DNA from: a virus
Virus record (IMG/VR): IMGVR_UViG_3300042937_000753
Coordinates: 23,483 to 87,482 of that record
Direction: 5' to 3' (one strand)
Length of the DNA stretch: 64,000 nucleotides
Positions 13,201 to 60,337 of this stretch are shown here, one piece after another. A program made the translations under genes and the position numbers. Within the stretch, counting starts at the first letter, position 1. The number at the start of each line of letters is the position of its first letter. The notes under the pieces are model-generated. The model had not been told where the DNA came from and did not search any database. It saw only the letters and a program-made list of their open reading frames with translations.

Positions 13201-15418
13201 TCCTGATGAGCAGTCAAGATATATGGTTGGTCAAGAAATGTATGATAACTATTTAAAGTCAAGAAAAAGAGATCATTTTAGTGAGCAAGAAATGCTTGCT
13301 TTAATTAAAAAAGCAAAAACAAATCCTGAAGTTGGGGCAAGTGATTTATCTAGAACAATGTTCTTACATTATCTCACAATTGAAAAACAAATTCAAGGAC
13401 TTACTGCATTAAAAATGGCATCTAATCCAGATACAGCTACTATGACAGATGTAGGGCAGGCAATTCAAGCTGAATCTGACATGGAAGCATTAGCAGAAGA
13501 AACTAAGATTGATCAAAATCTTAGATTAGCAATGTTAAATGACTCTGTTATTAGTTCTTTCTTTAATACTAAATTGGTACGTGGATTAGCAAAACCATTA
13601 TTTAAATTTAGATATGATGATGATATTCAAGAATATATTCAAAGCTATATGTCTGATTTTAGAAATAGTGGTATTCTTAAATCAAATTTTGGAAGAAACT
13701 ATAGAGACAGATTCCCTGTTGTATTTAGAAATGATGTATTAAGTTATTTATTCCAGAATGCATTAAGAAAATACAATCTTGGTAAAGAATATAGTTCTTA
13801 TGCTATGACAGATTCAATAGGATTAACTCCTGCTGCTGGTCTTAAATTTGGTGCACAAGTGATTGAAAAGGATGGAGTTCCAACTATGGTGGTAGATAGA
13901 GTTCAAATTGAAAAAGAATTCTTTGACAAAGCTTATTTACAAGGTAGTGAAGCTCAGAATAGTTATGAGTCTCGTAGTTTATACCCACTTCAACCAGGAC
14001 ATTTTGGTAATAATTCATCTTCTAATAAGGCAGAATATATCCGCTTTGTAATTGAGAGAGAATATTTAAGACATGTAATGCCTATAACTGAAGTTATTAA
14101 GACTAAAGAATTCCAAATGGAATTAGAAAATATTAATAAAACTAGTATTGAAACTAATGAGATTAAAAATAAAAGATATGCTTATGAAAAAATCATAGCA
14201 ACTAGAGCTTTGGACAATACATTAAATCCTTATAATCTATTTAATGATCAAAATAATGCCTATGCAGTTAGATTGGACAGAATTAAAACAGAATATAAAA
14301 ATGATTTTGTAAAAGATTATCCTGTTTTAGCTAGAATGGTTACTGAAAGTACTACAGATAGGTCAATGTACAGTCTTTATATTGATGACAAAGACATGAC
14401 AACATTTAAATCAAACATGTATAGTAGAAATTTAGAAGAGCTGAGTAATAGAAATGTGGAAAAAGTATCTGACAAAGCAGAAAATGATAGAATAAGTGAC
14501 TTCTTTTCTAAGATGACTTATGTTGCAATGATGCAGGCTGGTACAAACAAAAGCAAATATAATTTCTTAAGTTTAACAGACTTTGATAAATTCATTGATA
14601 TAATGAATGATGAAACTGCTAAATTTCTTACATCACCGCTTAAACTCAAAATGCTTATTGACTTTAAAAATAAGTTTGAGCAAGAGAATAGTCAGGCAAA
14701 TAGAACAAGAAGTAGATTTAAAAATTATCTTACGGCATTGGATGTAGAAAAATCAATTGCTACCCAAAATCTAATTGGAGAAACAGAAGAGGATGCAGTT
14801 ACTGGTGACATGATTACATCAGCAGAAAATTTAGTAGAAAGAAAAAATCTAATCCCTACTATTAATCCTAATGTGTTTGTATTTAATGATCTTTCTGGAA
14901 CTGACAAAGCATATAAATTTATTGTAGAAAATAATCCTGACATCACTTTTGTATATCAATTTAGTCTTGGTCAAAAACAAGCTATTGATAAAATGACTGA
15001 AGCTCAGTTCAACAATAAAAAAATGAAAGGTAACATACAAATTAGAAAGTATGCTAATAGTTCTTCTGTGGGTATAATTACTGGTCAAGATAGTGTTGCT
15101 GATGCATTCTCTAAATTAGATCCAAAACTATACTCAAAAAGAAAAGCGGACATAGAAAAAGCTATTGCTGAAATTAGTCAAGTAGTTGCAAATGGAGGTA
15201 AAATTGCATTCTCTATAAATGGATATGGAGATCCTACTATGATGCCTCAAGAATTATTTGTATATTTAAGCAGAAGGCTTTTTGAAGAGTTTCAGTATTT
15301 AAATCCTGGTTCTGAATTTACTAATGAAGTAAGTAAAGTGGTTGCAAAATACCAACCAGTTACTGATGCCGAAATATTAGCTAAATTTGACGGAGAAAAT
15401 AACCCATTAAAATGTTAA
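4265..15418 (+). CDS. Virion-packaged crAss-like DNA-dependent RNA polymerase (phi14:2 gp66-like), multidomain
   Basis: Motifs RIPVQG...SGADFDIDKL (catalytic DxDxD at 12254-12268), ADGQGW, FHKFSLAPL, STQLRKL and GWVDVEKD. Also an HEAWH zincin motif (7271-7285) and a SLOG-like KIISNGQTG motif (6611-6637). Confidence 0.92.
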   Translation: MACQLYTENDISALYSLVYGEIMDRIQDPKLGKFDNKALDKFIKDIYKEFKDEPNGLLYVQAIPDMLDIVKNDLQIKKYLLNDANLDLNNVAKLSLDFEDLDNVIKFITPKTVQKTKKEVDGEIKKANKNSKTVVQNNNNNEIWSAVEEKAKVDYPDKTTGNIAVAKNPEAMSESERNLIDPQKGLFYKVIKTVIWAARRRGKSDNAMLGDIPVMLKAQSIKTLDPADLTDDDITFLTKNKGYDINVAIVSDSSGVPIRFDEEGNVVEEGGRIVYQYIRPVINRAGKLYLGNRSGFLYNLVPAETLLKRQLANEAKDGKLYGQVEREAELAKIKRKQIQKMNDLAKLNETLSLQDEPVMLPITGGSYGIVEHKSELLSNTDFVNDLEMIYTHDSGDLEGMSYFMTNRVSAGVAVDNRIYLQRMDMPKELAANIAKVLTTKALLNGEALSPQARLAHYDTFLSNRTKGNNIKVEIKQELGQNVLKVTLMDPLTGDASVVDLESEDAEKMIADHLMESKKIKDKEGKVVAVYPANLSYMKSFAVDGAIQKGVKYTDYTFDISKTGTQVIKEVQKDYFDFIKPLAKVDYTTDGAAYFVAINAYLEFAVPFNFETAEENLIDIGVPSDELLTSNDVDNGNKKAKPVKVEIEEKDEETGKGFTIETKVSTIANDRVLVANLNEADAVFGLGTTFDTKDEKISRDRSGKENKWYGVKLGTKANAPKNLKPPTDAINQMVNNLSQLKGGVVNIIGNDIAQLTKEGYSQKDIDTYVYNILSEVVKQFPITKIISNGQTGVAEASIKAAKRLGIPVKIRAFQGYQLRKAAPYAASGIKTTKNTRADFLSRFFSKSSKTYKKAAAKVEETKEDKTTTVPKTIEVKARAVEVTKTPEQQKVSDAKINRLAIDDLLDGSDMIPDVPLNRKKRVSAVMDQLYGKQGWQEVQNWWKSSPLKNVVDVERLGLVFNSDAYATFMSAGSMLADAAVKLRAQGFAARIELYGDALPVTLYHEAWHAFSQLALTKEEKAKLYNEIRTYEKWKNMEYIDIEEELAEEFIDYAANGKKQKGFIQTIFEKLKKLIDFFFGNTTKRDVTRLQDIPNVKKYYNQLYTGKFKISTENAEHNLMPGFERLNSAKKTIQPLVNTAKDFAEITDVQSNKIVDLVDSLMARTFYQYNNKFNTTAGAVKLLGDVNNREKLYYNLEKQLKALLAAQLERTRAITVKNIESDNPDYVTEQKESAKLDLLMKAVENYGSVAEALTKKTDRGVVAFHMQRSRFNILKDLYIDDTEDASIALFTSTEGNSISAKQLATDDTMMMLSGIYKLERDENGDYIKEEDEYGVKAYSIETDDFGLPVLEPVDVMWNRVARTLQGSMDYQDMHDRMTEAIENYPEFIQVLEMLPNPYTFGPGAYNNKTEFQSETNFWQDLKKPVIPYIQLNINKTVLEKAKKIDGKWIAEKSKYESRLSAANFDIYRIVADWTTNFNIADPATNRFIIKDGVNNYLNTTEIMKEFSQNKQLIPTKAAEFLAALGIQLDMTSADIKSIVNSTKKPFASSYNIDYIFNNVRLVHLAGKSDDIGLQAAAAQFKRDPLHYLMNGLPEAIEKAAGGKASDVKTKVRALAELQNRFSDGYSNYAVLTPEKNKVWEQFLDNTVTRIITSLNRAENWQQLTTEDADPNGRFQHMRWLSEANNPASEFSVILKSMFDLDPMSDTYGEKIPGASIVLENIGGTQIINRETNESLGTSTANTDVTSKFLQELHTMLQSGVQEFMRHASKQTAMNLRAKKVNTYSGKESSNLYVDIMAFSPANTAGNNNLGESQGFNIMLGYIAAEAGRIFRFKSNEEYFKNFSAYNRDVVRKDNDETVKAGEAFTAFDDILTDTVQGELYDIINKAIEDKLSFDEFNLRDIVNDNPALRVKIKNNVIEYFNKLSQANYARLESARFVDPSLYEMVSTDEFSKDQVDKMLIKAYTYNSWIHNFETTILAYGDAVQYNHDKEEFHKRNAGLGSGGKSFRSDMRARMYINSPMFERLYADKEGYKLNAYNGTLTTAIIKELTIDKSVYKDEYYDEHVKEYTARYIKAGKPKAEAERLAKDLADTVLADYSNMKIADGQGWLNFEAYRMLKNLESSWSAQQEDLYKKVIAGEILNASDIKEFFPPYKLQYFGPIKTKGLPMTSFHKFSLAPLIPTVHTANMQLGQIHDMMLNQNVDYVLMETGEKIGHLGNGDEILDKNGNVDASVNFTKNVIYAEFLKNQTEVNSKFKGKSIFSTQLRKLILEGLYEQGEVSKDVKHLVDNYVNRVGEYTELLKNELIDQLGFAENENGEFVPVNKDSIAKLALMIRENLTRDDVYSDKLIDIIDVTEEGDLRFDLSLHPEAVKIEKLLLSLINKRIIKQKVKGEPLVQKSSGFYDGLIEFSVDLDKMNPEARDAAVKKYMGSNFLPTYHKGTDGTTTAMKVAISLQGDYENLLNLEYKGEPISTLDRLNEAIKDDEWLDADNEANRKATTKDPIYDIAFSELKSTKGDTKLFILESDLTSEIKANLILDDKNGKRVKGSTYQGIKILGDYYSHKTLKSSDGDALDIIVVKSKEDAQKQYDAYIKGGAKQFTGIGNVIFSNIDTSVKSTNRQAITLVGVRIPVQGLNSMEFMEVYHFLPPQAGNIIIPPAEIVAKSGADFDIDKLSIFMNNIDGDGNVRMPMFDNAKDFYEAIKDPSKYEMSKEQMYSLQKSGLENQLINDIRSILELPQNYVSLTTPNGTYLVKPTADMLSEYVSDYNPFQSLMSDKNKLSAPDKNGKQKSVISPTRIFEAGYNLYKHESNVVGKKTLGLGAIENTFNVIFNSLGASMPAVYRHSDEEVDRVSFLGLRHNTMKKDGQDVISLSHQFDTDGNNKVADIINQLINGWVDVEKDAWVFFVQGNYEVAPTLLYLLKAGVPFKEAVYFVSQPLVREYVKERRLANSTFAEPLRKDPGFQGVNFKAASNIIAKYFKNFIPDEQSRYMVGQEMYDNYLKSRKRDHFSEQEMLALIKKAKTNPEVGASDLSRTMFLHYLTIEKQIQGLTALKMASNPDTATMTDVGQAIQAESDMEALAEETKIDQNLRLAMLNDSVISSFFNTKLVRGLAKPLFKFRYDDDIQEYIQSYMSDFRNSGILKSNFGRNYRDRFPVVFRNDVLSYLFQNALRKYNLGKEYSSYAMTDSIGLTPAAGLKFGAQVIEKDGVPTMVVDRVQIEKEFFDKAYLQGSEAQNSYESRSLYPLQPGHFGNNSSSNKAEYIRFVIEREYLRHVMPITEVIKTKEFQMELENINKTSIETNEIKNKRYAYEKIIATRALDNTLNPYNLFNDQNNAYAVRLDRIKTEYKNDFVKDYPVLARMVTESTTDRSMYSLYIDDKDMTTFKSNMYSRNLEELSNRNVEKVSDKAENDRISDFFSKMTYVAMMQAGTNKSKYNFLSLTDFDKFIDIMNDETAKFLTSPLKLKMLIDFKNKFEQENSQANRTRSRFKNYLTALDVEKSIATQNLIGETEEDAVTGDMITSAENLVERKNLIPTINPNVFVFNDLSGTDKAYKFIVENNPDITFVYQFSLGQKQAIDKMTEAQFNNKKMKGNIQIRKYANSSSVGIITGQDSVADAFSKLDPKLYSKRKADIEKAIAEISQVVANGGKIAFSINGYGDPTMMPQELFVYLSRRLFEEFQYLNPGSEFTNEVSKVVAKYQPVTDAEILAKFDGENNPLKC

Positions 15419-15421
15419 AAG

Positions 15422-18400
15422 ATGTTTTGTGAATCTAAATCTACAGTATTAAAAGATCTTAAGGAAAAAGGAATACTTGGTGAATACAATGATGTACTTA
15501 ATACAATTGAGTTTGAAAAATTTAATAAAGAATTTACCAGATTCATTGAGTTAAAATATAATCTAAACACTGGAGGTGAGCTTGCCTTTAGCACATATGA
15601 AACACAAACACGTTTTCCATATAGTTCTAGATACTATAGAGATGATATACAAACAACCATATATGCTCAAACTAATGAACCATTGTTTGAAGCTCTTGAT
15701 GAGGAAAGGATAAAAGCTGATATCAAAAATGAAGTAAAAGACCGTGATGTTTTAAATGAACCTGAAGCTGAATATCCAGAAGATGATTTAATGAACCCAA
15801 TGTTCATGAGAGAGCCTTCTTATCTTCAACATAGATTTAACAGTGAAACTAAAAAAGCAATGTTATCTTTTATAGAAGGTCTCAATATTAAAGTTGTAGA
15901 TGGTCTTGATGAAATTATCCCTAGTAGCAGAAGAACATGGATAGATAAAAATGGTAATATGCAAACTAGAGAGGATCCTTTAGCTGCATTTGATCTTCTA
16001 CAAAAGTTTTTGGCTTTGAAAGAAAATATATCTGATAAAAATGTTTCTATGCAGACAGCCAATATTATTTATAGTTTTCTTGGTAAAAAATCTAAATTAG
16101 GTATTGAACTTTGGAAAGGTATAAATAGTTGGAGTAAGTATCAAGAAGTCTATGATAAGTATAATAATAAAAAACTTAGAGGACAAGAAGAACAGGTTGT
16201 AGAACAACCTATGCAATATGGTGAGAATAGTTTAGCTGAAGATAAAATAAAAGAAGTCTATGAATATGATCCAGCTAGATTTAATGCATGGGCACATAAA
16301 CAAACTATAATTGAGTTTCTTTCTAGCATGCTTATTATTGGAATTGACAATAATTATATTGGTAAAAAAAGAACTAATCCTGATATTGCTAAAGAATATT
16401 TTGAAAGCCTTGGTTATAAAGATAAGTATGCAAAAGATTGGATTACCCGTATGTTTAATAGATTCATGAATTGGATTAAAGAACATATATTAAATAATAA
16501 AGCAATTACAATTTATAAAGAAGCTGAGTTGAGAGATACTGTACTTGATATTGTTGATGATGTTTATAAAAAGAACTATATCAAGTTTATTAGAAGTTAT
16601 TATGAAAACCCTACAACTGGAAAATTCTTTAATGCTAAGGGTCAGGAGTTTGAACAAAAATTTTATGATGAAAGTCTTAAAAGAGATCCCTTTGCAAAAG
16701 AAATAGTTGATAAATTATTCAATGCTCCATATGAATATTTTTTAAGTGGCTCATTAGTTCTTAGAAAATACGGTAGAGTTATAAGAGCTTTAAGTGAAGA
16801 CTTACATGATATTGATGGTGTAATAAGTCTACAACAATTTGAAAGTGAAAAAAATGCTACTCAGTTTTTAAAATGGATTGAAGAAAGAGGTGTTCCTTTA
16901 AGTAGAGAAAGAACTACTAAAAACTCTAAGCAGTTTATAAAAGAACTGATGCCTTATTTAGAAGGACAATCTTGGTATGAAGATTTGAAAAAACAATTTC
17001 CTACTTGGACTTTTAAAGCTGCTTTCATTGGAAAAGATCATAAGAAAGGTGAATCAGTTACTATTTCTGGATATGTTGAACATCCTACAGAAACAGTTCT
17101 AGTTCAGAATGCAGATGGAAGTGCTGCTACAGATTTCTTTAATGCTGAAGATAATGGTAAAACTCTTCCTAAGAGATATGTACTTGATTTCTTTTTGAGA
17201 ACACAAGAGGGTAATTACCCAGAGGTGTTTGATCATTATTATAAAGACTGGAAACAAATCTTTGAAGCTAAGATCAACATGGGCCGTGGAAAAGACTTGG
17301 CTGATTTAATATATTTTCAACCATTTAGAGAAGATAAATACAAGTATACTAATAAAGGTTTTAGATACTTTACATTTGCTGATGATGTAATTACAAATAT
17401 GCCTGACATAACTGAATTTAAAGTTGATGAGCAAGCTATAAAAAATCAAAGATCTAAAGAAGCAGCTAATGCATTAGGTCAAAAAATTGCACAAGCTTTA
17501 GGAGTACAATATATGTACATAACAGATGCTCAAGCAAAACAGATTCTGGAGTCTAGAAAAAAAACATACAATGGTGAACCAGCTTTTTTCTTTGGAGGAA
17601 CAGTTTATATTGTTGGTGATAATGTAAACTTTGACACTGTACTCCATGAATTATCACATCCTTTATTAAGAGCAATTTTTAAAGAAAATCCAAAACTCTT
17701 TAATAACTTGTATGAAGCATTAAAAGCTACTACAGAAGGGGATATAATAATCCAGCATGTTAAAGATAATTATCCAGAGCTTAAAGAAGAAAGCCCTCTA
17801 TTTAAAGAGGAAGCTCTTGCTTATGCACTACAAAGAAAAGCAGCAAATAAAGTAACTAATCAAATTGAGTCATTAGGTTTTGAAGGATTTATTGGAAAGT
17901 TACTTGATGCATTAAGAAATATGCTTAAAAAAATCTTTGGATCTAAAACTAGAGTATCTGAGATTGATGTAAATACCTCAATTGATAAGCTTGCAGATAT
18001 GCTCTTAGAAGATTCATTTGAATATGAAACTGATTTTGTTACCAATGATGATCTTGTTGCATATGCCAGGGAGATAAAAGAAATGGCTGAAAAGCTTACT
18101 AAAGATGTCAAAGCTGAAAAAATACAAGAGGGTATCAATGAAATGTATGCTACCACTCAATTAATATATGAGAAAGCTATAAACTTTAGAACTAGATCTC
18201 CGCAGTATCAAAGAATGTTAAAAGAAGCATTGTTTGTAAAAGGAGAAACAAATGAATTACTTCCTAAAATTAAAAGAATTTTGTTTGGATATCAGACAGT
18301 GTCGGGTCAAGAAAAATTTACTATTGATGATGCTATCAAAAATGCAGTAGAAGCAGAAAGAATGAGAAATGAAGATCTTATTAATAGAGCCCGCAGTTTT

Positions 18401-21400
18401 GTAAACACAGTTGGAATTGTAAATAATATTGCTAAAAATATCTATCAAGATCTTGATGCTATGGATAGAAGCAATTCATTTAATTCTAGAGATGCTATAG
18501 CCTTATTATTCTTATATAGAAGTTCAATTAGATCATACAATGATATGTTTAATTCATTTGATGAAATGATTGCTAATGAAGAAGGTTTTGATATAAATCA
18601 GACTAATGATATTATTGACCTTATTAATGAGGCTAAGAATAACTTAATGAGATCTGATAAAAAAATCCGTGACATATATAAAGCAAACAGTGTTGATTTC
18701 TATGTAGAGATAACAGGTTATATGAATGATTTCTTAAAGGAAGAGCTTGGTAAGAACTTAAGAAATGCATTAACAGATAAGCTTTCTGAAAAAGAAATAG
18801 ATGACTTGTACAATATTGCAATTACTCAAAAATTAGATGACCAAACTGCTGAAGAATTATATACCAATCTAGAAAAGAAAGGTGTTGAATCTAAATATAT
18901 CAAAAAATTTATTGATGATTATAATGCATTCTTGGTTAATCAAGATAAAATTACTGATGGTTTGTCAGGTAAACTAAGAGATGTAAGTTGGTTTAATAGA
19001 TTCTTTGAGTCATATACATCTAGTAATGATCCTATAGTAGGTGGATTAGCTATTTTTATCAATGATCAAAAAACAGAAGCTTCTCAAAGGGCCCTGGATA
19101 AGTCATATAAATTTAGAAAAGAACTTGAACCTCTCTTACAAAAAGTAGGTTATACAACTTTAAAAACCAGACAGTTAACTGATATGTTAATGTTTAAGGA
19201 TAAACTATTATATATAGATCCTAAAACAAAAAAACCTATTGAAAAAGAAGTATTTACATTCTTAAATGAGTTTGGTAATGGTTGGAGATATAAACAAGAT
19301 TTGCTTGAATATCAAGTTGATGAAGCTTTAGCATCAGAAGATGATGATAAAATTAGAACTGCTACTAATGCATTAAAACAGTTTAAAAAAGATTACATGT
19401 GGGATGATTACATTCCAGAATTTTATGAAAAAGATGCTGTCTTTGAAAAATATGGTGAACTTGGTAAAATGGCATGGCTTTCTAGGAAGATGGCTCTTGA
19501 CAAGTTTAATAATGAATCCAATGAGATTAGTGATGAGCTTGAAAGATTTCAAAAATATTCTACTCTTCAAGAGTTATGGAGAGAATATCAAATGCTTTCT
19601 TCATTAAAATATGCAGACGGAACTAGTAAAGTAGATGACCCTGCTACTGGTGTTTATGATTTGTCAATTGCAAAAATACTTCTTGAACATAAAGAATCTA
19701 CTAAAGATTACTATGAATTTGCTCCAAGACCTGGTTCATTACAAACATCATTTAATCAGTTTTTAAGTTTAGCTGAGTCAAATGGTGAAGATTTAGTTAA
19801 GGCTAAAGATGAATGGATCAAACAAAACATTAGAATTGCATATACTCAAGAGTTTTATGATTCTAGAAAAGAATTAACAGCTAAACTTAAACAAATTCAA
19901 GACAAGGTAAATTCTGTTATTGGTTCTGAGTTTGATATTAGTAATGCATACAATGAGATTTATAATTTAATGTTTGCATATAAAGATCAACAAGGGCAAC
20001 CAATTCCATCTGAATTAGGCGTAGATAAAATGAAGATGATTAAAGAACTTAATCAAAAAATCATTAACTATAAAGCTGCTTTTGATACTAAAACTGGTTT
20101 ATCAAATGAAGATGCTGAAGAACTTGAGCTATATATTGCAATCAATAAGAAAAATCCTGAAAGGTTAACTCCAGAGCAAAAACTAAGATATAGAGAGTTG
20201 TTAATGCAACAAACTAAAACAGGTTTGTCTCTTGCTGAAGTTGCTACTATGCAAAGTGTTTATGCTGAATTATCTTCTCTTACACAAAAAGTTTCTACTG
20301 AATACTATGTAGATTCAATAAATGAACATTTACAAAGATTGAATGTAGCCACACTTACTGTAGATCAAGTAGACAATTTTATTAATAGTGATGAGATGAA
20401 AAATCTTCTTGCTAGTGACGGTAAATTTGTAGATTGGTTTGTAACTAACCATGTATCTAGAAAAGTAAAAAATAGAAAAACCCGTAAAATGGAGCTTAAA
20501 TATGAAAGATCCATGGCAAACTCTATTTCTATTCCTAAGAATGAAAAGTATTATGAAAAAACCACCCTCTTTAATGAGTTAACTGGTAAAGATGAAACAT
20601 TCCGTGGTCTACCAAATGCAAGACACTCTACATATAAAGTAAAAGATAAATACAGAACAGGTTATGATCCTACTACAGGAGAAGTAAAACTAGAAGTGGG
20701 AGTTCATATTGATAATAAAGGACAACCCTTACCAAGAGCTTTTAAAGTAGGAGATAAGAACAGTGCTCTTAATGATGATTTCATCAATAAAGATTACATG
20801 AGATTAAAGGAACAACCAAACAGTCCTAGATTTCAGTTACTTGAATTAATGAAGAAAGCACACCTATCATTCCAAGAAGATAAATCTAATAAGTCTAAGC
20901 TTTATTTAGACATGCCTAGATATGTTCTTAGAGATAATTTATCTAGATTACAAGCTGGTAAATTTGGTGAAAGATACAATCAGATTAAAAAAGGTATAAC
21001 TCAGTCATTAAAAGATAGCTTTGGACAAGCCGTTGATGAGAATGAACTTGAGCATAACTATGAGAGAGATAATAATCTTGAAGAATATAGAATGGTTAAT
21101 ACTGATTTAAATTCTGAAGAAGTTTCTTATATTCCTGTTTCTGGTATGTATAATCTTGAGACAGATAATACTGATCCAGATGTTATTCGTGGAATGTTCA
21201 AATACTTACTTTCTCTTGAGACTCAAAGTAAACTTCATGAAACATTACCTCTTGTTAATTCAATCTTGGAAACATTAGCAGATCCTGCTAATGCACCTAA
21301 GACTCCAAATACCTATAGTAAAACCATTAAGAAAATAAAAGGTAAACTTCAGCATACTGTAAAACCAGGAGCAAGTAATAATAGACTTGGTCAAGTAAGA

Positions 21401-22999
21401 TCTCTTATTGAAAGAGAATACCATGGTAAACAATTCAGCGGGGAAGGAAGCTCTATCTATTTAGATAAATTCATGGGTCAATTACAAAAACTTTCTGCAA
21501 GAGCTTCATTAGCTGTTAATATTTCTTCGGATTTAAAAAATAGATACGGTCAGATTGTACAGAACATGCTTGAATCTGCTGGAGGTGAGTTTATTACACC
21601 AAAAGATTTAGCTCAAGCTAGACTATGGGCTGCAACAACAATGATAGAATGGACATCAAAAAGTGTTTACACTAAAGGAGTACCTGCATTATCATCTCAA
21701 ATCATAGAGATGTTTGACTCAGCATTTAAATTCAAAGATGACTTTGGTAGATCTGTTTCTAGAAACATGGGTAAAGATATGATGAATGGTGAGTGGATGT
21801 ATAACATCAGAAAGAATCTGGAGATGGAGGCTGCCTTACAATTATTTGGGGCATTTCTTAATGGACAAAAAGTAGAACAGAAACTTTCTAATGGTAAAAC
21901 AATCACTGTTAATTACAAAGATGCATGGCAAGTTAATAAAGATACTGGTATAGCTGAATTAAAACCCGGTATTGATCCAGCATGGAGTAATAGAACAATT
22001 ACACATGATTTTCAAAGAGGTCAAACTTTGGAGGATATAGCAGCAATGTATGGTGTTACTGTAGATGAAATTAAAGAAAGAAATAAAATTGTAAATGTTT
22101 TAGAATTTGAAGATAATCAAGAAATAATTATTGCTAAATCAGAAAAATTCAAACAATTTAGAAATAAATTTCAAGGTGTATCCCATAAATTATATGGTTC
22201 ATATGATGACTTTGCACAAGCAGAGGGTAATCTATACTTACCATATAGAATGTTTACTTTCATGAGAAAGTGGTTTGTCCCTATGCTTACAAATAGATGG
22301 GGTGCTCGTGTTGAAATTGAAGATGGTAAATTCTGGTCTCCCAAACTCAATAAAAGATATGATTGGATGACTGGTAAAACTAATCTTGGTTTCTATCTTA
22401 ATGCCTATATTGGAATGAAAGAGTTAATTAAGAGTAAAGGAAAGTATTGGTCTTATATGCCTGAAGATCAAAAGAGAGATCTAATGAAAACATTAGCTGA
22501 ATCATTATTTATTATTACATCAGCTCTCTTAGCTTCAATGTTATTTGGATATGATCCTGATGATAAAGAAAGATTTAAAAAATTAGAAGCTAGATCTGGA
22601 GCTCTTGGTACTGATGATTTTAAAACTTGGGGTTTCATACAAAATCATATGTTGATCTTATTATTAGGTACACAAATGGAATCTTCAGCTTTTGTTCCGC
22701 TTCCAACAATGTTTGGAGTAAATCTTGGAGCAGATGACTATATTAAAATTGCTACAACTACCACATCTTCATTTGGAAATACCGTAGGGTTATATGCAAA
22801 AATGATGGAGGATGTATTTAAATTAATGACTTTTAATGATAAAGCTTATTATAGTAGAAAAGAAGGTGAATATTGGTGGCAACAAAAGGATGTACCTAAA
22901 ATATATGGTAGATTACTTAAATCTGTTGGTATCACTGGTTCAACAGGAGATGTAACTCAATCACTTGAAGGTCTTGAAAATGCAGGTAAACTTAAATAA
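15422..22999 (+). CDS. Giant virion/ejection protein 3 with NTase-like, zincin, LysM and C-terminal hydrophobic segments
   Basis: NTase-like LSGSLVL...HDIDG...KINMGRGKDLADL; HELSH...EEALA metallopeptidase; LysM-like HDFQRGQTLEDIAAMYGVTVDEIKERN; hydrophobic helix ESLFIITSALLASMLFG. Confidence 0.75.
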   Translation: MFCESKSTVLKDLKEKGILGEYNDVLNTIEFEKFNKEFTRFIELKYNLNTGGELAFSTYETQTRFPYSSRYYRDDIQTTIYAQTNEPLFEALDEERIKADIKNEVKDRDVLNEPEAEYPEDDLMNPMFMREPSYLQHRFNSETKKAMLSFIEGLNIKVVDGLDEIIPSSRRTWIDKNGNMQTREDPLAAFDLLQKFLALKENISDKNVSMQTANIIYSFLGKKSKLGIELWKGINSWSKYQEVYDKYNNKKLRGQEEQVVEQPMQYGENSLAEDKIKEVYEYDPARFNAWAHKQTIIEFLSSMLIIGIDNNYIGKKRTNPDIAKEYFESLGYKDKYAKDWITRMFNRFMNWIKEHILNNKAITIYKEAELRDTVLDIVDDVYKKNYIKFIRSYYENPTTGKFFNAKGQEFEQKFYDESLKRDPFAKEIVDKLFNAPYEYFLSGSLVLRKYGRVIRALSEDLHDIDGVISLQQFESEKNATQFLKWIEERGVPLSRERTTKNSKQFIKELMPYLEGQSWYEDLKKQFPTWTFKAAFIGKDHKKGESVTISGYVEHPTETVLVQNADGSAATDFFNAEDNGKTLPKRYVLDFFLRTQEGNYPEVFDHYYKDWKQIFEAKINMGRGKDLADLIYFQPFREDKYKYTNKGFRYFTFADDVITNMPDITEFKVDEQAIKNQRSKEAANALGQKIAQALGVQYMYITDAQAKQILESRKKTYNGEPAFFFGGTVYIVGDNVNFDTVLHELSHPLLRAIFKENPKLFNNLYEALKATTEGDIIIQHVKDNYPELKEESPLFKEEALAYALQRKAANKVTNQIESLGFEGFIGKLLDALRNMLKKIFGSKTRVSEIDVNTSIDKLADMLLEDSFEYETDFVTNDDLVAYAREIKEMAEKLTKDVKAEKIQEGINEMYATTQLIYEKAINFRTRSPQYQRMLKEALFVKGETNELLPKIKRILFGYQTVSGQEKFTIDDAIKNAVEAERMRNEDLINRARSFVNTVGIVNNIAKNIYQDLDAMDRSNSFNSRDAIALLFLYRSSIRSYNDMFNSFDEMIANEEGFDINQTNDIIDLINEAKNNLMRSDKKIRDIYKANSVDFYVEITGYMNDFLKEELGKNLRNALTDKLSEKEIDDLYNIAITQKLDDQTAEELYTNLEKKGVESKYIKKFIDDYNAFLVNQDKITDGLSGKLRDVSWFNRFFESYTSSNDPIVGGLAIFINDQKTEASQRALDKSYKFRKELEPLLQKVGYTTLKTRQLTDMLMFKDKLLYIDPKTKKPIEKEVFTFLNEFGNGWRYKQDLLEYQVDEALASEDDDKIRTATNALKQFKKDYMWDDYIPEFYEKDAVFEKYGELGKMAWLSRKMALDKFNNESNEISDELERFQKYSTLQELWREYQMLSSLKYADGTSKVDDPATGVYDLSIAKILLEHKESTKDYYEFAPRPGSLQTSFNQFLSLAESNGEDLVKAKDEWIKQNIRIAYTQEFYDSRKELTAKLKQIQDKVNSVIGSEFDISNAYNEIYNLMFAYKDQQGQPIPSELGVDKMKMIKELNQKIINYKAAFDTKTGLSNEDAEELELYIAINKKNPERLTPEQKLRYRELLMQQTKTGLSLAEVATMQSVYAELSSLTQKVSTEYYVDSINEHLQRLNVATLTVDQVDNFINSDEMKNLLASDGKFVDWFVTNHVSRKVKNRKTRKMELKYERSMANSISIPKNEKYYEKTTLFNELTGKDETFRGLPNARHSTYKVKDKYRTGYDPTTGEVKLEVGVHIDNKGQPLPRAFKVGDKNSALNDDFINKDYMRLKEQPNSPRFQLLELMKKAHLSFQEDKSNKSKLYLDMPRYVLRDNLSRLQAGKFGERYNQIKKGITQSLKDSFGQAVDENELEHNYERDNNLEEYRMVNTDLNSEEVSYIPVSGMYNLETDNTDPDVIRGMFKYLLSLETQSKLHETLPLVNSILETLADPANAPKTPNTYSKTIKKIKGKLQHTVKPGASNNRLGQVRSLIEREYHGKQFSGEGSSIYLDKFMGQLQKLSARASLAVNISSDLKNRYGQIVQNMLESAGGEFITPKDLAQARLWAATTMIEWTSKSVYTKGVPALSSQIIEMFDSAFKFKDDFGRSVSRNMGKDMMNGEWMYNIRKNLEMEAALQLFGAFLNGQKVEQKLSNGKTITVNYKDAWQVNKDTGIAELKPGIDPAWSNRTITHDFQRGQTLEDIAAMYGVTVDEIKERNKIVNVLEFEDNQEIIIAKSEKFKQFRNKFQGVSHKLYGSYDDFAQAEGNLYLPYRMFTFMRKWFVPMLTNRWGARVEIEDGKFWSPKLNKRYDWMTGKTNLGFYLNAYIGMKELIKSKGKYWSYMPEDQKRDLMKTLAESLFIITSALLASMLFGYDPDDKERFKKLEARSGALGTDDFKTWGFIQNHMLILLLGTQMESSAFVPLPTMFGVNLGADDYIKIATTTTSSFGNTVGLYAKMMEDVFKLMTFNDKAYYSRKEGEYWWQQKDVPKIYGRLLKSVGITGSTGDVTQSLEGLENAGKLK

Positions 23000-53760: not shown

Positions 53761-53780
53761 ATATTTTAATTAAACAATAG

Positions 53781-53854
53781 TGATCCCAACAGGAGTCGAA
53801 CCTATAACCCCTACCTTAGAAGGGTAGTGCTCTATCCAATTGAGCTATGGGACC
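53781..53854 (-). tRNA. tRNA-Arg(TCT), CCA not encoded
   Basis: GGTCCCA/TGGGATC acceptor stem, D-arm TAGCTCAATTGGATAGAGC, anticodon arm CTACC-CTTCTAA-GGTAG, T-loop TTCGACT. Confidence 0.95.
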
Positions 53855-54841: not shown

Positions 54842-54867
54842 TGTGTTATTTTTAAGGTAAATAGTTA

Positions 54868-55122
54868 CCAGGTGACAGAAATATATAGCTAAAAGTAAAT
54901 TCAAATACAAATACAAAGACCTTCTCTTCTACAAAGGCAAATACAAATACCAAGTCTCTTTCACTAGCCAGTTATCTCAATAGAGTAACCTGTCTAATTA
55001 TGGAGTTCTATCTCAGTTTTTTATAATTTGAAGAGAAGCGGTTATTTTAGTTTATGTATATTAAACATTTCTTAGTATGTGGTAATTAGCCACGAAGTTT
55101 ATATAAAATTTCTGTCACTAGG
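54868..55122 (-). ncRNA. Candidate ~250-nt structured ncRNA with hexamer repeats
   Basis: 11-bp closing stem (54872-54882 with 55108-55118), 9-bp inner helix (54921-54929 with 55030-55038), six NNTTTG hexamers and internal hairpins. Confidence 0.7.
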
Positions 55123-55128
55123 CATAAA

Positions 55129-55163
55129 GAGTAAGGGAATCAGCTTGTGCCTATCCCTTACCC
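55129..55163 (-). terminator. Hairpin between the coiled-coil gene and the ncRNA (terminator or processing site)
   Basis: GGGTAAGGGA...TCCCTTACTC followed by a short T-run. Confidence 0.55.
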
Positions 55164-55178
55164 ACCTAATTTAAATTA

Positions 55179-56090
55179 CTAGTTTTCAAGATTAATAAAC
55201 ATGTTTACTATATCTTGGAATCTAGGATCAACATTAATTCTTAATGCTGCGGCATCTTTAATCAACAACTCACGGTTGCTATTAAATTCCATAGTAAGTC
55301 TAAGTAATTCACCTTGATATGCATCCATTGCAATTTGGTATTTACTCATAGCTTCTTTTTCAAGACTTAAGAATACTGCTGCTTTATTAGCATTATCCTT
55401 CTGAATACGTGCATTTTCATCACTTACTAAGTTCTTAACCTTAGCTTTGTAATAGTTTACACGCTGTTCATAGACTCTATGTTGATCAGCAATATTTTCA
55501 TGAATTATCATTAATCCTTGAGATATATGGTGCTTAGTAACTTTAACAGGAGTTTTCTCACCGTCTTTTACCTCAAACCACTCAATACTAGGAGTATTTG
55601 GTAATTCTTTTCTCAATTGAGTAAGCTTACCATTTTTATGGATAAACTGACCTAAATGAGAAGCAATTGCTTCTGCTTGAAGATATTCTGAATACTCTGC
55701 ATCTGTCAATTTAGTCCAACCCCATGAATCTGATACATCATAAAGAATATCATAATCAGGAAGTGAAGGTCTCTCAGGTGCTATAAGATGAGAGAAATCA
55801 GGTCTTGTATCTCTTAATCTATCCATCTCAGTTTCTTTACCTTTGACAGTTTCCATAAGGAAAGCTTGACAAGCATGAAGATTACCTTTGATTTTCAACT
55901 TATCAAGTATATCACCTGGTACAGGAATACCTGTTTGTAGATCATATGCTTGACTACCTACTGTAATAGATTTACCACAGTTGTTGTAAGAGTTTAATTC
56001 TCTTTCAATCTCCTGTGCATTCTGATTGCATAGGTTACTAATACTTTGTGCTTGTGACATAGACAAGCCTTTGTTTGCTAAATTTCTCAT
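55179..56090 (-). CDS. Long alpha-helical coiled-coil protein associated with the downstream ncRNA
   Basis: MRNLANKGLSMSQAQSISNLCNQ...EAIASHLGQFIH...LRINVDPRFQ; likely start at 56090. Confidence 0.75.
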   Translation of the reverse strand: MRNLANKGLSMSQAQSISNLCNQNAQEIERELNSYNNCGKSITVGSQAYDLQTGIPVPGDILDKLKIKGNLHACQAFLMETVKGKETEMDRLRDTRPDFSHLIAPERPSLPDYDILYDVSDSWGWTKLTDAEYSEYLQAEAIASHLGQFIHKNGKLTQLRKELPNTPSIEWFEVKDGEKTPVKVTKHHISQGLMIIHENIADQHRVYEQRVNYYKAKVKNLVSDENARIQKDNANKAAVFLSLEKEAMSKYQIAMDAYQGELLRLTMEFNSNRELLIKDAAALRINVDPRFQDIVNMFINLEN

Positions 56091-56716: not shown

Positions 56717-57529
56717 TTAGAATGGTAATGGAAAGAATTTATCTTCTAGTCCATCATTCCATTGTCTTCCAGCAAATGAATGTATTTTCTTTGTAGGAAA
56801 TATTTTCTTTGCACACTCTATGGCAATAGCATCATCATATACACCATAATCACCTGATTTAGCATATAAAATCACATTATCATCTATGATCTTGATCCAA
56901 CCACCATTCTTTGTACCCCAATCACCATCACGATAAATACTACTGATATCACTGTGACCATTAGATACAAAGCCATAAGGATCCCAACAAAATCTGTTGA
57001 TTTTATCATCATAATGATCCTGTTGTATAATAAATTTAATACCCTTGTGATTTTGAAAATGAGTAAAGTCAAGATTCTGAGAATACACTTGACGTGCAAT
57101 ATTTCTCATCTTATTGTTCAATTCATAATTCTTATCAGATTCTTGTCTCCACCACTTTTCATATTCTTCTTTGGTAGGTTCTTCTGGATCACCATCAGGA
57201 TAATCATCTTCATAAGCTTCTGGTTCTTCTTCAACAACAACTGATTGTTGTGCTTTAACAGCAGCTTGAATGATATCTAATCTAGCAGCAAGAGTAAGTA
57301 TTTGATTCTCTTGTTCTACTTGGATTTTATATTTATCAGGTTGAACAACAGATAGAAATGTATCCATCTGATCTTTGGTAACACTAAAATTCCAATTACC
57401 ACCAGCAAATGACTTGAAGTCATCAGTAGGTACTTGGAATGTGGTATGCTTGGTAGAACAAGTAATACTGTTTCTACCATAGGTAACTACTTCATAGAGA
57501 CCTTGTTTTGAGTTTAAGTGAATTTTCAT
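56717..57529 (-). CDS. Hypothetical early protein; C-terminal domain possibly Janus/PHPT1-like
   Basis: H...GGWIKI...ILYAKSGDYG motif. Confidence 0.6.
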   Translation of the reverse strand: MKIHLNSKQGLYEVVTYGRNSITCSTKHTTFQVPTDDFKSFAGGNWNFSVTKDQMDTFLSVVQPDKYKIQVEQENQILTLAARLDIIQAAVKAQQSVVVEEEPEAYEDDYPDGDPEEPTKEEYEKWWRQESDKNYELNNKMRNIARQVYSQNLDFTHFQNHKGIKFIIQQDHYDDKINRFCWDPYGFVSNGHSDISSIYRDGDWGTKNGGWIKIIDDNVILYAKSGDYGVYDDAIAIECAKKIFPTKKIHSFAGRQWNDGLEDKFFPLPF

Positions 57530-57564
57530 TTTGAGTTTATTTTTTGAGTTTATATTTAAGTTAA

Positions 57565-57694
57565 AAATCCCTCTGCACTCAGTTGTAATAGCTCTGTTTC
57601 TGATGCTATTTAAACCATCCCTCCTGTATTACTACAGCTAATGGTACTATTACAACTGCTCACCCTTGGGAAGTGAGTTGTGGTGCATTAATAA
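57565..57694 (-). ncRNA. Twister-like self-cleaving ribozyme (P1 type with a long P5)
   Basis: UAA-UGCA-CC...CUCAC-UUCCCAAGG-GUGAG-[12-bp stem]-AG-UGCA-GAGGG; both pseudoknots (CCC/GGG and CC/GG) can form. Confidence 0.7.
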
Positions 57695-57695
57695 A

Positions 57696-57897
57696 TAAGT
57701 AGTAGTACTCTGTAAAAAGGTTGCGATCCTTTACAATTACATTTCCTTAAATTGCTGCATTTGCAACACAAACCTACTTATTAGTACTCTCACAAGGTTG
57801 CAACCCTTGGTCATCGGTTTGTATTATCAGGAATCTAAACCCAATACCTAAGTATTATTAGTTTATCTATCTGTCTGTACCTGCTTGGATGAGAGTA
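57696..57897 (-). ncRNA. Two tandem tRNA-like (T-arm plus acceptor-like) modules
   Basis: Repeated AAGG-RTYGCAA-CCTT...AGAGTACTA motif; closing stems TACTCTCA/TGAGAGTA and TAAGTAG/CTACTTA. Confidence 0.45.
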
Positions 57898-57899
57898 AT

Positions 57900-57960
57900 A
57901 AAAAAACCACAAGTCAACCCCTGCTTTACAGGATGAGAGGTTATGCCTGAAACCTTGTGG
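57900..57960 (-). terminator. Branched hairpin followed by a T-run
   Basis: CCACAAG...CTTGTGG followed by TTTTTTT. Confidence 0.5.
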
Positions 57961-57978
57961 TAATGAAGCTAGGAGAGA

Positions 57979-58128
57979 TTAATCTCCTAGCATTGGTGTT
58001 AGCATACATGCCCAAAATAGACAAGATATACCAATAGCTGGAAGTATATTATGTCCAAAAGACATTAATACACCCATGAATGTGCCTAGTAATAAGACAC
58101 CAAACAAGTAATGACTTATATTCTTCAT
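57979..58128 (-). CDS. 49-aa two-TM membrane peptide (not in the ORF track)
   Basis: MKNISHYLFGVLLLGTFMGVLMSFG...; the stop lies in the hairpin GCTAGGAGA/TCTCCTAGC. Confidence 0.55.
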   Translation of the reverse strand: MKNISHYLFGVLLLGTFMGVLMSFGHNILPAIGISCLFWACMLTPMLGD

Positions 58129-58259
58129 AATTCTATAATCATTTCGGGAATATTATCTTTACCTAGTATTCTTTTTATTATCTTACCATTAGAATACTTT
58201 ACATATTGTACTGTAGTTAACTTACCAGAGAACAATTCAATCATAGTTTTAAAAATCAT
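58125..58259 (-). CDS. 44-aa hypothetical peptide (not in the ORF track)
   Basis: MIFKTMIELFSGK...; ATGA overlap with the next ORF. Confidence 0.5.
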   Translation of the reverse strand: MIFKTMIELFSGKLTTVQYVKYSNGKIIKRILGKDNIPEMIIEL

Positions 58260-59036
58260 AACTTAATATTTTTTAGTGTGAGGACTGCCTATGCTAGGAA
58301 CATAGGACTTGATTAGTTTTAGTTAAATAATATTGATTGTGCTCAATATAAAAATTAGACAAGAGTATAACAATATCCTACATTGTTACTAGACCGCTGA
58401 GTCATCACTTGAATAAACTGAATTCCACTTCAGTCAGCTGTATTCTCCCAAGTGGAATCTTGTGGAGGAGAATAGATAATTAACATACAACATGCCGGCA
58501 AATCATAATTGCTCCATGAAATGTATGGTAGTTTAAATTAAACTCACATAGCTTTATCAATACTATGTGTAAAATACCTGATTTTTAAGTCTGCACTAAC
58601 TTTGGATTATAAATGACTGCATCAAACAAGGATCATATCTTGTCTTCATTTACTTAGTACTATATACACATTTGCAGAGTGTAAATAGAACCCAATAGTA
58701 GCCCCACAGGTTTGTCACTGTTTACTAACAGTAAAGAGGTACAGCATTATTGGTTAGCTGTACAAGTTGCGGAGAGGATTACTGCCTCACACAATTTAGT
58801 TGTTACATGTTTAATCTGTTCCTATCATTAGTTCAAGGATACTGATTAGTAAATAGACTACCCTGCAAGAGAGTAGTCTGGAGTCATAACTACTACCAAT
58901 CCTACTGCAGGATGTTGGTATTTATGTAGTACTTTATAACCTTCTTTACACTTCATGTGTATAAGGTCATTAATCTCTATGCCCATAGACATAGCTTGAT
59001 CTTCGGTGATTGTAATATCTATCATTGGTTTTATAT

Positions 59037-59306
59037 TTACAAGTTATCAGCAATAATAAGACTATCAAGGTCTGAGTATTTACCAGAATATACTTTTTTA
59101 GATTGAACTCCCTCAACCCATATACTATCTTCTGATACTTCCAAGTAATATTCTATGTCTATATTACCGCCTACATCAGTGTAGTTCCCCGGAGTCTTTG
59201 TTTCTCCATTTGAAACACCAACTACATGTATAAGTAGATAACTTAATAGTAAGAATACTAAGGAACCTGTAATAACTCCAATGATAAATGAATCATTAAT
59301 CTTCAT
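59037..59306 (-). CDS. Membrane-anchored early protein
   Basis: N-terminal TM helix. Confidence 0.7.
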   Translation of the reverse strand: MKINDSFIIGVITGSLVFLLLSYLLIHVVGVSNGETKTPGNYTDVGGNIDIEYYLEVSEDSIWVEGVQSKKVYSGKYSDLDSLIIADNL

Positions 59307-59707
59307 ATGTTTGTTTTAATTGGTTACTAGTCTAGGTTTAGCTATATAAAATCTATATAATACTAAAGTATTATAGTAGTAATTACTAACTAGATACAAG
59401 GTATAAAAGAGGTATAAGTGGGTGTATACATAATAAACACATACATATACTCATCTTTCCGGTTTTTATAACTACTTGATACTCAGTATCAAAGTCACAA
59501 AGCTACACACGGTGGAGACAAGATACTATCAAGTAATAATAAAGAAATATGATACCTGATACCTACAAGTAGCAAGTACATTTCTTTATATAGTTAGCCT
59601 AATGAGCCTGTGTCAGATACATTTCCATACATAAGGTTTTATATATATCCTTAATGATTTCATATTTGTGCTAATAATACTCTATAAAGAGTATAATTGC
59701 ATACTAT

Positions 59708-59733
59708 GTTAGGGGCTAGAAAAGAAAGGGAAA
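59708..59733 (-). promoter_or_regulatory. Repeated early motif, copy 1 (candidate vRNAP promoter)
   Basis: gttaggggctagaaaagaaagggaaa on the + strand. Confidence 0.6.
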
Positions 59734-59746
59734 TATTTCAGGTATG

Positions 59747-59782
59747 AAAAAATAAAGAGTAACCACGCTAGTGGCTACTCTT
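59747..59782 (-). terminator. Intrinsic terminator
   Basis: AAGAGTAGCCAC/GTGGTTACTCTT stem with a T-rich tail. Confidence 0.7.
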
Positions 59783-59797
59783 ATATTTTTGCTATGA

Positions 59798-60337
59798 CTA
59801 CTTAGTAGTCTTAGCCTTTGGTGTTGAAGTTTCTTCAACATCCATAGTGGCATCTTCAGATGCAACTAATGCTTCTTCAGAAGCTTCTGCTGTGAAGTCC
59901 TCTTCATCAGCATCATCTTCATCATCCGAAAGCATAGCTGAGGTTGAGGAAGAGACAGGTGTGCTATCAGCATACCTCTTTGCAGCTTCAGCTGCATAGG
60001 CCTGACCAAAGTCAGCGCCCATACTCTTGGATACAAGAGTTTCAAATTGCAGGTCGGACTTGTCTAAAGTCCAAGACCCTGCATTGTCACCCATTTGTAT
60101 TTGATACAAAGGGTGCCACATATTCTTTCCCGGTAACGGGTAAGAAGTGAAATACAACGGAGTTTTATTTCCACTAGTCAAGATGAGCTTGCCATCAGGA
60201 CTAGATTTAAAGATAGGTTCCCTATCTTTATAGTTGTTGCTAATGAAATTAGCCAACTCATTAGAAGTGCCACGCACTTCATAGATTGCTAAGGTTCCAC
60301 CTTTGCCAATCTTAAGAAATTTTGCTTGTAAAGCCAT
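59798..60337 (-). CDS. Early protein with a long acidic tail
   Basis: 179-aa ORF; DDEDDADEEDF. Confidence 0.75.
   Translation of the reverse strand: MALQAKFLKIGKGGTLAIYEVRGTSNELANFISNNYKDREPIFKSSPDGKLILTSGNKTPLYFTSYPLPGKNMWHPLYQIQMGDNAGSWTLDKSDLQFETLVSKSMGADFGQAYAAEAAKRYADSTPVSSSTSAMLSDDEDDADEEDFTAEASEEALVASEDATMDVEETSTPKAKTTK

Follow-up and report, generated by a model that had tools for sequence, protein, structure and literature searches.

What is the role of a non-coding stretch on the minus strand of a virus genome that is closed on itself by long-range pairing, carries two tracts of tandem hexamers, and directly follows a gene of 303 codons? The DNA in which this question arises (referred to here as the window) makes up the 3′-terminal 64 kb of the 87,482-bp IMG/VR virus record IMGVR_UViG_3300042937_000753 (64,000 nucleotides, positions 23,483 to 87,482 of the record); it is AT-rich, with a G+C content of 31%, and CheckV places the completeness of the record at 74%. 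The gene, designated p303, and the RNA encoded behind it were followed across viral contigs, and the reading that we favour, at a probability of roughly 0.45, is that the two constitute an uncatalogued phage ribonucleoprotein module, in which the hexamer tracts of a dedicated ~310-nt structured RNA would serve as a docking platform for p303; the case is built from sequence comparison. A first-pass annotation, made from the letters of the window, had drawn attention to the minus-strand open reading frame (ORF) of 303 amino acids, to a perfect 11-bp closing stem, and to a second 9-bp long-range helix with hexamers on either side of its 3′ strand and an A-rich strand opposite, and all of these elements are present where it had placed them (Table 1).

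The 11-bp stem, in which GTGACAGAAAT at 55118-55108 pairs with 54882-54872, forms part of a closing stem (P1) that in fact extends over 16 positions, and the 9-bp helix (P3) is formed by CTTCTCTTC and GAAGAGAAG. The word GTGACAGAAAT and its complement each occur once in the 64 kb (expected number 0.06; 0 of 100 shuffles reach 2). The 341-nt gap has a fold energy of -81.5 kcal/mol (z = -4.15), which none of 100 shuffles equalled, and the A content is 43% in the strand between P1 and P3 and 77% in J3/4. RNAalifold analysis of 17 close sequences returned 52 pairs, 20 with compensatory changes, and analysis of 49 distinct sequences reaching down to ~40% protein identity (alignment A2) returned 49 pairs, 41 with compensatory changes. 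Across A2, 94.8% of 2389 cells are paired, compared with 79.0% when the columns are shuffled (none of 500 shuffles equals the observed value) and 35.9-52.3% in six slid control registers, and the covariation score is 0.539 against 0.088-0.174 in the slid registers; the structure was derived from the same alignment, so that the unslid register is flattered, but the size of the gap and the variety of pair types are still unambiguous. Changes on both sides were seen in 15/15 pairs of P1, in 8/9 pairs of P3 (99.3% of cells paired), in 6/8 pairs of P5 (99% of cells paired) and, with a conserved loop, in 9/9 outer pairs of the hairpin P0, all in A2, and covariation downstream of homologous genes was thus found for both helices seen in the window and for further ones. 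The variable hairpins P2a and P2b were left out of the covariation scoring.

A mutual-information scan of 88 distinct sequences recovered the known helices and added an outer helix (Pt), in which column pair 15-304 has a corrected mutual information of 0.71 and is 99% paired with 4 pair types, and column pair 14-305 is 82% paired with 5 pair types. Because this outer helix encloses P0, the RNA measures ~309 nt rather than the ~250 nt first estimated, and the hairpin that had been described as separating gene and RNA belongs to the RNA. The pairing is also strand-specific: G.U cells outnumber A.C cells (177 versus 27), so the gene-sense strand is the strand that folds, which is what a transcript, but not duplex DNA, would lead one to expect. 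The comparative evidence establishes a genuine structured non-coding RNA of ~309 nt with its two ends paired, and a covariance model of its core (R1) finds a single copy in the 87-kb record. The family is anchored by a 14-nt block, CTGAGATAGAACTC, in which the first two bases are nearly invariant and the other twelve fully so; a gut branch of the family has a related motif that is shorter. In four divergent loci (L025, L133, L081 and L060) a conserved insert of ~45 nt replaces the simple P5a hairpin (columns ~62-115 of alignment A4), and may be an optional extra domain.

Searches of the window region with the Rfam 15 covariance models (E ≤ 10) found no family over the RNA, and none matched it in the loci of 13 relatives (E ≤ 1); ROOL and GOLLD are among the profiles that Rfam includes (PMC12286853). 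The sole ARAGORN match for a tRNA or tmRNA in the window is a tRNA-Arg downstream of the RNA, in keeping with the initial impression that the element resembles no tRNA or tmRNA. Several other identities were considered and set aside: RNase P, tmRNA and 6S RNA (no model match), a retron (no reverse transcriptase), a group I or II intron (two distinct ORFs flank the element, and loci vary in the gene that lies downstream), a Bacteroidota promoter motif (no fit) and a boxA-like motif that follows P0 (divergent members do not conserve it). P0 was also rejected as an intrinsic terminator, being absent from a minus-strand terminator scan and enclosed by a covarying helix, with a conserved loop.

Table 1. 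Positions of the p303 gene, the RNA and its parts, and nearby or related RNA genes (window coordinates, except for the last row, which refers to the contig of locus L235)
Feature	Position	Strand	Basis or remark
p303 gene, family unknown	55179-56090	minus	Translation; ATG at 56090, 303 aa
Whole structured RNA, ~309 nt	54861-55169	minus	Ends inferred from the outermost covarying helix
Pt terminal helix, 5′ strand	55164-55169	minus	Pairs with 54861-54866; mutual information
P0 hairpin, 10-bp stem with conserved inner mini-stem and loop	55129-55163	minus	Covariation
P1 closing stem, 5′ strand	55108-55123	minus	Contains the 11-mer; pairs with 54867-54882
P2a variable hairpin	55079-55093	minus	Hairpin at the same place in relatives; sequence and length differ
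P2b variable hairpin	55054-55068	minus	Fold and relatives
P3, 5′ strand, 9-mer	55030-55038	minus	Pairs with 54921-54929
14-nt family anchor block CTGAGATAGAACTC	55003-55016	minus	Alignment conservation
P5 stem with variable terminal hairpin P5a	54963-54998	minus	Covariation
5′ tract, four phased hexamers, consensus NNUUUG	54932-54955	minus	88-sequence alignment
P3, 3′ strand	54921-54929	minus	Hexamer tract on either side
3′ tract, five phased hexamers	54890-54919	minus	88-sequence alignment; starts with invariant GGUCUUUG
P1 closing stem, 3′ strand	54867-54882	minus	Pairs with 55108-55123
Pt terminal helix, 3′ strand	54861-54866	minus	Partner of 55164-55169
tRNA-Arg (anticodon tct)	53780-53854	minus	ARAGORN; ~1 kb downstream of the RNA, same strand
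Hatchet ribozyme	58576-58738	minus	81.1 bits against Rfam gathering threshold of 51
tmRNA and two tRNAs of L235	1661-2044, 1179-1252, 1371-1442		

The hexamer tracts are the most conserved single-stranded feature of the RNA. They are formally unpaired and flank the 3′ strand of P3, where three tandem hexamers had been noticed on each side and the alignment resolves four units in the 5′ tract and five in the 3′ tract. Among the 88 sequences, G is found at every sixth position with frequencies of 0.94, 0.95, 1.00 and 1.00 in the 5′ tract and 0.95, 0.92, 0.91, 0.77 and 0.60 in the 3′ tract, and the U two bases ahead of each G has a frequency of at least 0.98 in 8/9 units and 0.90 in the first unit; the first two positions of each hexamer vary. 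Both copies of the pattern TTTGNNTTTGNNTTTG in the window lie here, at 54947-54932 and 54917-54902 (expected count 0.12; 2 of 100 shuffles reach 2), and the only row returned by Tandem Repeats Finder within the RNA has a period of 6. No covariation links the tracts to other positions, their conservation being too high for the test to have power. The idea that the hexamer phase is kept across P3 was dropped, the spacing being 18 nt in the window and 19 nt in at least one relative (by eye). The gut branch keeps both tracts even with a reduced central domain. This pattern of conservation fits repeated protein-binding sites, for which the hexamers are candidates.

The association of the RNA with p303 was examined in two independent collections of relatives, one assembled with the protein as query and the other with a 14-nt word of the RNA, several of the RNA-first loci being the same contigs as protein-first loci. 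The protein query returned 22 viral contigs with homologs of 65-80% identity, and the RNA follows the gene directly in 22/22, while the next gene downstream of the RNA differs between these loci. The scan with the 14-nt word returned at least 117 stretches, and an RNA profile (nhmmer) recognised 68 loci in all; among the matches listed, the RNA is immediately preceded, on its own strand, by a gene for a p303 homolog in 45/45 loci (38-79% identity). In most loci the RNA starts 10-30 nt past the stop codon, and in four (L059, L033, L123 and L138) 300-750 nt, or another ORF, lie between gene and RNA. Two loci, L020 (3604-3765) and L021, carry a G+C-richer insert of ~160 nt between the stop codon and the RNA, which has no Rfam match and does not fold better than its shuffles (z = -1.36). 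None of eight other window genes flanking the module was detectable in 27 divergent loci, and the gene-RNA pair is therefore the only conserved neighbourhood.

The linkage was followed further with 80 additional protein-first loci, fetched with a small alignment of mid-distance homologs, in 78 of which R1 finds the RNA core downstream on the same strand; the two misses are on contigs that end 124 and 217 nt past the matched part of the gene. A distant set comprised 64 loci whose homologs share 23-47% identity with a distant member; many of these loci lie on contigs of ~95-100 kb from one large collection. R1 matched (E ≤ 1) in 44/64 of these, always ~150-170 nt after the gene and on the same strand. 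The remaining 20 comprise 2 loci cut at the gene, 10 with at least three tandem hexamers downstream and 8 without, against a background of such tracts in 1/64 upstream control regions, which brings the distant set to 54/62 testable loci with the RNA. The proposal that homologs keep the downstream RNA is thus borne out at mid-distance and in most of the distant set, and fails in the 8/62 distant loci that apparently lack it.

Homologs of p303 share the same start Met and form a large family (2144 clusters at 90% identity, none of them named; 392 representative clusters). Searches of Pfam and PHROGs with p303 and 65 family members gave nothing consistent, the only Pfam match to p303 at E ≤ 0.1 being a chance match to DUF4635, with nothing ToxN-like. 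Sequence and profile comparisons with the PDB returned only chance helical matches (E ≥ 0.022), and the sole recurrent weak matches are to helical-repeat proteins, over residues ~190-300. Conserved motifs include the block His-Arg-x-x-Glu-x-x-Val-Asn-Tyr-x-Lys-Ala. No match was found among GenBank phages by tblastn of p303 or by DNA search with the 1.9-kb region, and tblastn with a gut homolog returned 2 records.

In the reading that we favour, the RNA would be transcribed in the direction of the gene, probably on the same early transcript, and the transcript would then be trimmed to a closed molecule with paired 5′ and 3′ ends. As the covariation shows, the terminal helix, P0 and P1 enclose a junction in which the 3′ strand of P3 is flanked by the two hexamer tracts, and the tracts could form a periodic platform on which several copies of a single-strand RNA-binding protein dock, one per six bases. 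A docking platform is suggested because the tracts are invariant in both branches and their period fits one protein unit per six bases, and the co-inherited p303 would be the most likely occupant, since the RNA was never met without the gene (0/45 RNA-first loci, among the matches listed). The tRNA, tmRNA and ribozyme genes that accompany the module in the phages lead us to infer that the particle may act early in infection on RNA or translation-related processes; the anti-defence sponge role raised in the first-pass annotation is possible. A more specific form of p303 docking, which we hold to be quite unlikely, is an RNA-scaffolded filament with one p303 protomer per hexamer and a geometry fixed by P3, in which the exposed bases would read or capture nucleic acid or a host factor; such a filament might be a relative, in logic, of the VIPR and Cas7 backbones with a six-base period, built from an unrelated protein and with a constant code, and it would occur in lake and gut phages alike.

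Several observations weigh against docking by p303. The protein is mildly acidic (pI 5.95; family median 6.29), and no RNA-binding domain was recognised in it by Pfam or profile sequence search. GUCUUUG, the core of the hexamers, is identical to the site that a host-type cold-shock protein prefers, and a host partner would be favoured for this reason. The p303 gene can exist without the full RNA, because no hexamer RNA is found within 900 nt of it in eight distant loci (L232, L248, L250, L251, L269, L282, L283 and L285); in L248, L269, L282 and L285 tRNAs directly follow a P0-like hairpin (by eye), and these four were grouped with L283 as a sub-clade having the gene without hexamer RNA. The relatives come from one phage assemblage, and the linkage could be partly inherited synteny. 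As to expression, contigs of relatives cover the RNA in three metatranscriptome runs of three studies at a word depth of 12.7-50.3, parts of the gene are covered in the same three runs at a depth of 2-5.7 (parts of the gene left uncovered in RNA libraries carry no information), and one 252-nt metatranscriptome contig lies wholly inside the RNA. Such contigs are only a weak hint, proving neither transcription nor discrete ends, because neither strand nor ends nor level can be read from them, the libraries may contain DNA, and the depth of the conserved core sums several strains.

The main rival to docking by p303 is a host partner. The RNA could be a decoy for, or a recruiter of, host single-strand RNA-binding proteins, with its GYYUUUG units bound by cold-shock-domain or S1-type OB-fold proteins, one protein per 6-7 nt, that would be sequestered or recruited early, and with p303 processing, loading or stabilising the RNA; we consider this unlikely, though it is the alternative that deserves most weight. 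The heptamer GTCTTTG/T preferred by CspB of B. subtilis (PMC1904285) is matched by the invariant GGUCUUUG and by GCCUUUG and GUYUUUG beside it, cold-shock domains offer six subsites for bases and favour strands rich in pyrimidines (PMC7825780), p303 is not basic, and no cold-shock domain is encoded in the phage record, whereas the control genomes of the search have one. The heptamer match is nevertheless weak evidence, because cold-shock selectivity is limited and binding to RNA is ~10-fold weaker than to DNA (PMC7825780); a decoy also leaves the inseparability of p303 and RNA across 25-100% protein identity unexplained. Improbable in our view is an analogue of VIPR, that is, a non-contiguous guide with a fixed code, where p303 would polymerise on UUG and the other three bases would read a gapped, constant target, such as a site in the host or in the phage's own genome. 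VIPR, as its preprint describes it (bioRxiv 10.64898/2026.04.26.720920), is phage-encoded and consists of one RAMP-fold protein (RRM core, G-loop and thumb) that co-purifies with a ~100-nt RNA (vrRNA) of 9-16 tandem 5-nt YNNGG units and a 3′ tail, with fixed positions, hypervariable NN positions that encode targets, and an accessory vap gene beside vipr; its protomers form a filament along the RNA according to a companion preprint, and non-canonical fixed trinucleotides exist. Fixed and variable positions likewise alternate here with a period of 6, but the unit is 6 nt with UUG and not 5 nt with GGY, the tracts of 4 + 5 units lie in a 309-nt multi-helix RNA, a conserved accessory gene is absent (8 neighbours, 27 divergent loci), and the sequence of p303 carries no RAMP signal. 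Nor is there hypervariability at the variable positions: in 65 close pairs the change rates at N1/N2 are 0.07/0.004 in the 5′ tract and 0.09/0.09 in the 3′ tract, ordinary values beside a core mean of 0.06. With its different unit and fixed bases, about three times the length of a vrRNA and far more structure, the RNA is not a VIPR-type programmable guide. Membership of VIPR itself was rejected on unit length, fixed bases, array size, hypervariability and accessory gene.

The possibility that the RNA works alone, self-assembling or as a ribozyme in the manner proposed for ROOL and GOLLD, with the gene linked to it by shared transcription or processing, is doubtful to about the same degree as a VIPR analogue. 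The RNA is phage-borne and near tRNA genes, as ROOL and GOLLD are (PMC12286853), the blocks outside its helices that do not vary could have a tertiary or catalytic role, and the gene is found without it in the 8 distant loci; against this, 0/45 RNA-first loci lack the gene (among the matches listed), all other neighbours turn over, no Rfam family matches, and at ~310 nt it is much smaller than either. A cis-acting 3′ UTR (untranslated region) element of the p303 mRNA, acting in stability, as a processing site or in protein feedback without a separate RNA, would account for the mere 10-30 nt that in most loci separate the stop codon from the RNA and for the fact that no promoter was identified between gene and RNA (a sigma-70 scan is at background, 25 versus 23.9 expected). 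We think it very unlikely: the 5′ and 3′ ends of the element are joined by the outer helix, a trait of stable RNAs that are processed, the form is kept where an ORF or 300-750 nt intervene, a gut-phage tRNA starts within a few bases of the RNA 3′ end, and the element is far more elaborate than known 3′ stabilisers. Hardly credible is an element acting at the level of DNA, either an iteron replication origin or a promoter cluster beside an initiator-like gene. Short direct repeats beside a gene do resemble iteron origins, and TTTG may be likened to the -33 element of Bacteroidota promoters; the strand-specific pairing (177 versus 27 cells), the long-range compensatory changes in 41/49 pairs, the stems retained by hairpins of variable length, and a 6-bp spacing unlike that of helical-phase iterons all speak against it.

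The gut-type RNAs, aligned alone (A8), have compensatory changes in 38/45 pairs and share a plan of P0, an 18-bp P1, a hairpin, and a P3 with NUCUUG or NNAUUG hexamers on either side. A tRNA on the same strand lies within 2 kb of the RNA in 58/99 distinct RNA loci, these being called distinct by matched sequence so that some contigs may count twice. One locus has ~25 tRNAs before the gene and another tRNA after the RNA, in gut phages only a few bases often separate the 3′ end of the RNA from the start of a tRNA, and in the gut phage L235 a tmRNA (76.1 bits) and two tRNAs are found just upstream of the p303 homolog. Because tRNAs and tmRNA adjoin it in this way, the module is part of phage RNA-gene islands. 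A tRNA right after the RNA was also seen in L235 by eye, and upstream of the homolog in L271 there are twister-P1-like (1091-1165; 44.8 bits against a gathering threshold of 67.2) and hammerhead-like (713-771; 26.3 against 34) matches, both below threshold.

The module was found in lakes, in gut collections and in a GenBank genome from rodent faeces, on contigs from 87 kb to >400 kb. The last of these, Bajarodcaudo virus 1 (PQ006092.1; L287), is the only annotated public genome found with the module, and in it the homolog is labelled "hypothetical protein" and a 58-aa coding sequence is called at 4933-5109 directly after it; since R1 matches at 5019-5135 (E = 0.0067), this ORF was probably mis-called across the RNA. 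Bacterial and archaeal genomes gave 0 matches to a first pattern and 1 match to a second, a full RNA core (140 bits) at 1853-2047 of a 3.7-kb contig (L222) from a metagenome-assembled genome labelled Candidatus Omnitrophota; this is probably phage DNA swept into the bin, and it does not point to a host.

Near-identical DNA to the window is present in lake-water metagenomes, 12 of the 24 runs listed containing at least 0.2 of the sampled words, 5 of them possibly the source of the record itself. The module lies in a small-gene region, together with the tRNA-Arg and a Hatchet ribozyme, upstream of a long minus-strand replication block that encodes a family-A-type DNA polymerase, primase, helicases and an exonuclease. 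A lone tRNA-Arg near the module is also seen in most close relatives. The Hatchet ribozyme is located in a long ORF-poor stretch upstream of the module and is the only match in an Rfam search of 57400-59900 at E ≤ 0.1, which gives no support to a twister-like element that had been suggested at 57565-57694. The window also contains three giant plus-strand ORFs of 1419, 3717 and 2525 aa to which no function could be assigned; the two larger (4265-15418, 3717 aa, and 15422-22999, 2525 aa, both plus strand) are almost without family matches, the sole match for the pair being a PHROG of unknown function at residues 675-818 of the 3717-aa ORF.

No described family or system covering the RNA or p303 was found on comparison of their sequences, and literature searches brought up no prior description of either, with an unnamed listing in the supplements of two large surveys possible: one reports candidate RNAs of 29-151 nt, among which pieces of the p303-linked RNA may be (PMC10690425), and the other gives, besides a few others, periods of 5, 18 and 60-79 nt, with the word "hexamer" absent from its accessible text and a database that could include this cluster (bioRxiv 10.64898/2026.10.21.760802). 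The module is like VIPR in having a phage-encoded protein gene beside a non-coding RNA with tandem short units of fixed and variable positions, and polymerisation of the protein along the repeats is proposed for VIPR and may apply here; the module is unlike VIPR in its 6-nt unit with fixed UUG, in its two tracts (4 and 5 units) within a multi-helix RNA, and in having neither a conserved accessory gene nor a RAMP signal by sequence. ROOL and GOLLD measure ~580 to >800 nt. Like them, the present element is a phage-encoded structured RNA of unknown function that is often found beside tRNA islands, and unlike them it is ~310 nt long and strictly linked to a gene, whereas no protein partner is known for ROOL and GOLLD (PMC12286853).

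In comparison with TRAP and HutP, the RNA here would be a stand-alone phage RNA with a 6-nt spacing, and the candidate protein is unrelated by sequence. TRAP binds (G/U)AG triplets and HutP binds UAG repeats, with one subunit of the oligomer per evenly spaced fixed triplet of single-stranded RNA; their sites are cis-acting leaders of bacterial operons, and the proteins are small beta-rich rings. To our knowledge, no natural tandem sponge RNA for cold-shock proteins has been described. The likeness to cold-shock sites lies in the GUCUUUG that is invariant here and is the CspB consensus (PMC1904285), and in a site of 6-7 nt that equals the repeat period. A type III toxin-antitoxin locus is similar in being phage-related and in combining a protein gene with a repeat-containing RNA, which in that case forms a particle with its protein. 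ToxI-type antitoxins are tandem repeats of ~35 nt upstream of the toxin gene; the RNA described here, unlike ToxI, is downstream of the gene and a single folded unit whose only repeats are hexamers, and p303 has no ToxN-like Pfam match, so the earlier suggestion of a type III antitoxin-like RNA is not supported. If the module is what we propose, then the uncultured phages of a large assemblage possess an RNA-protein machine that has gone unrecognised, encoded next to tRNA, tmRNA and ribozyme genes, and the phased hexamer tracts are a simple handle that makes its function testable. Structured, protein-linked phage RNAs are rare, and CRISPR RNAs, the phi29 pRNA, ToxI and VIPR each opened a field.

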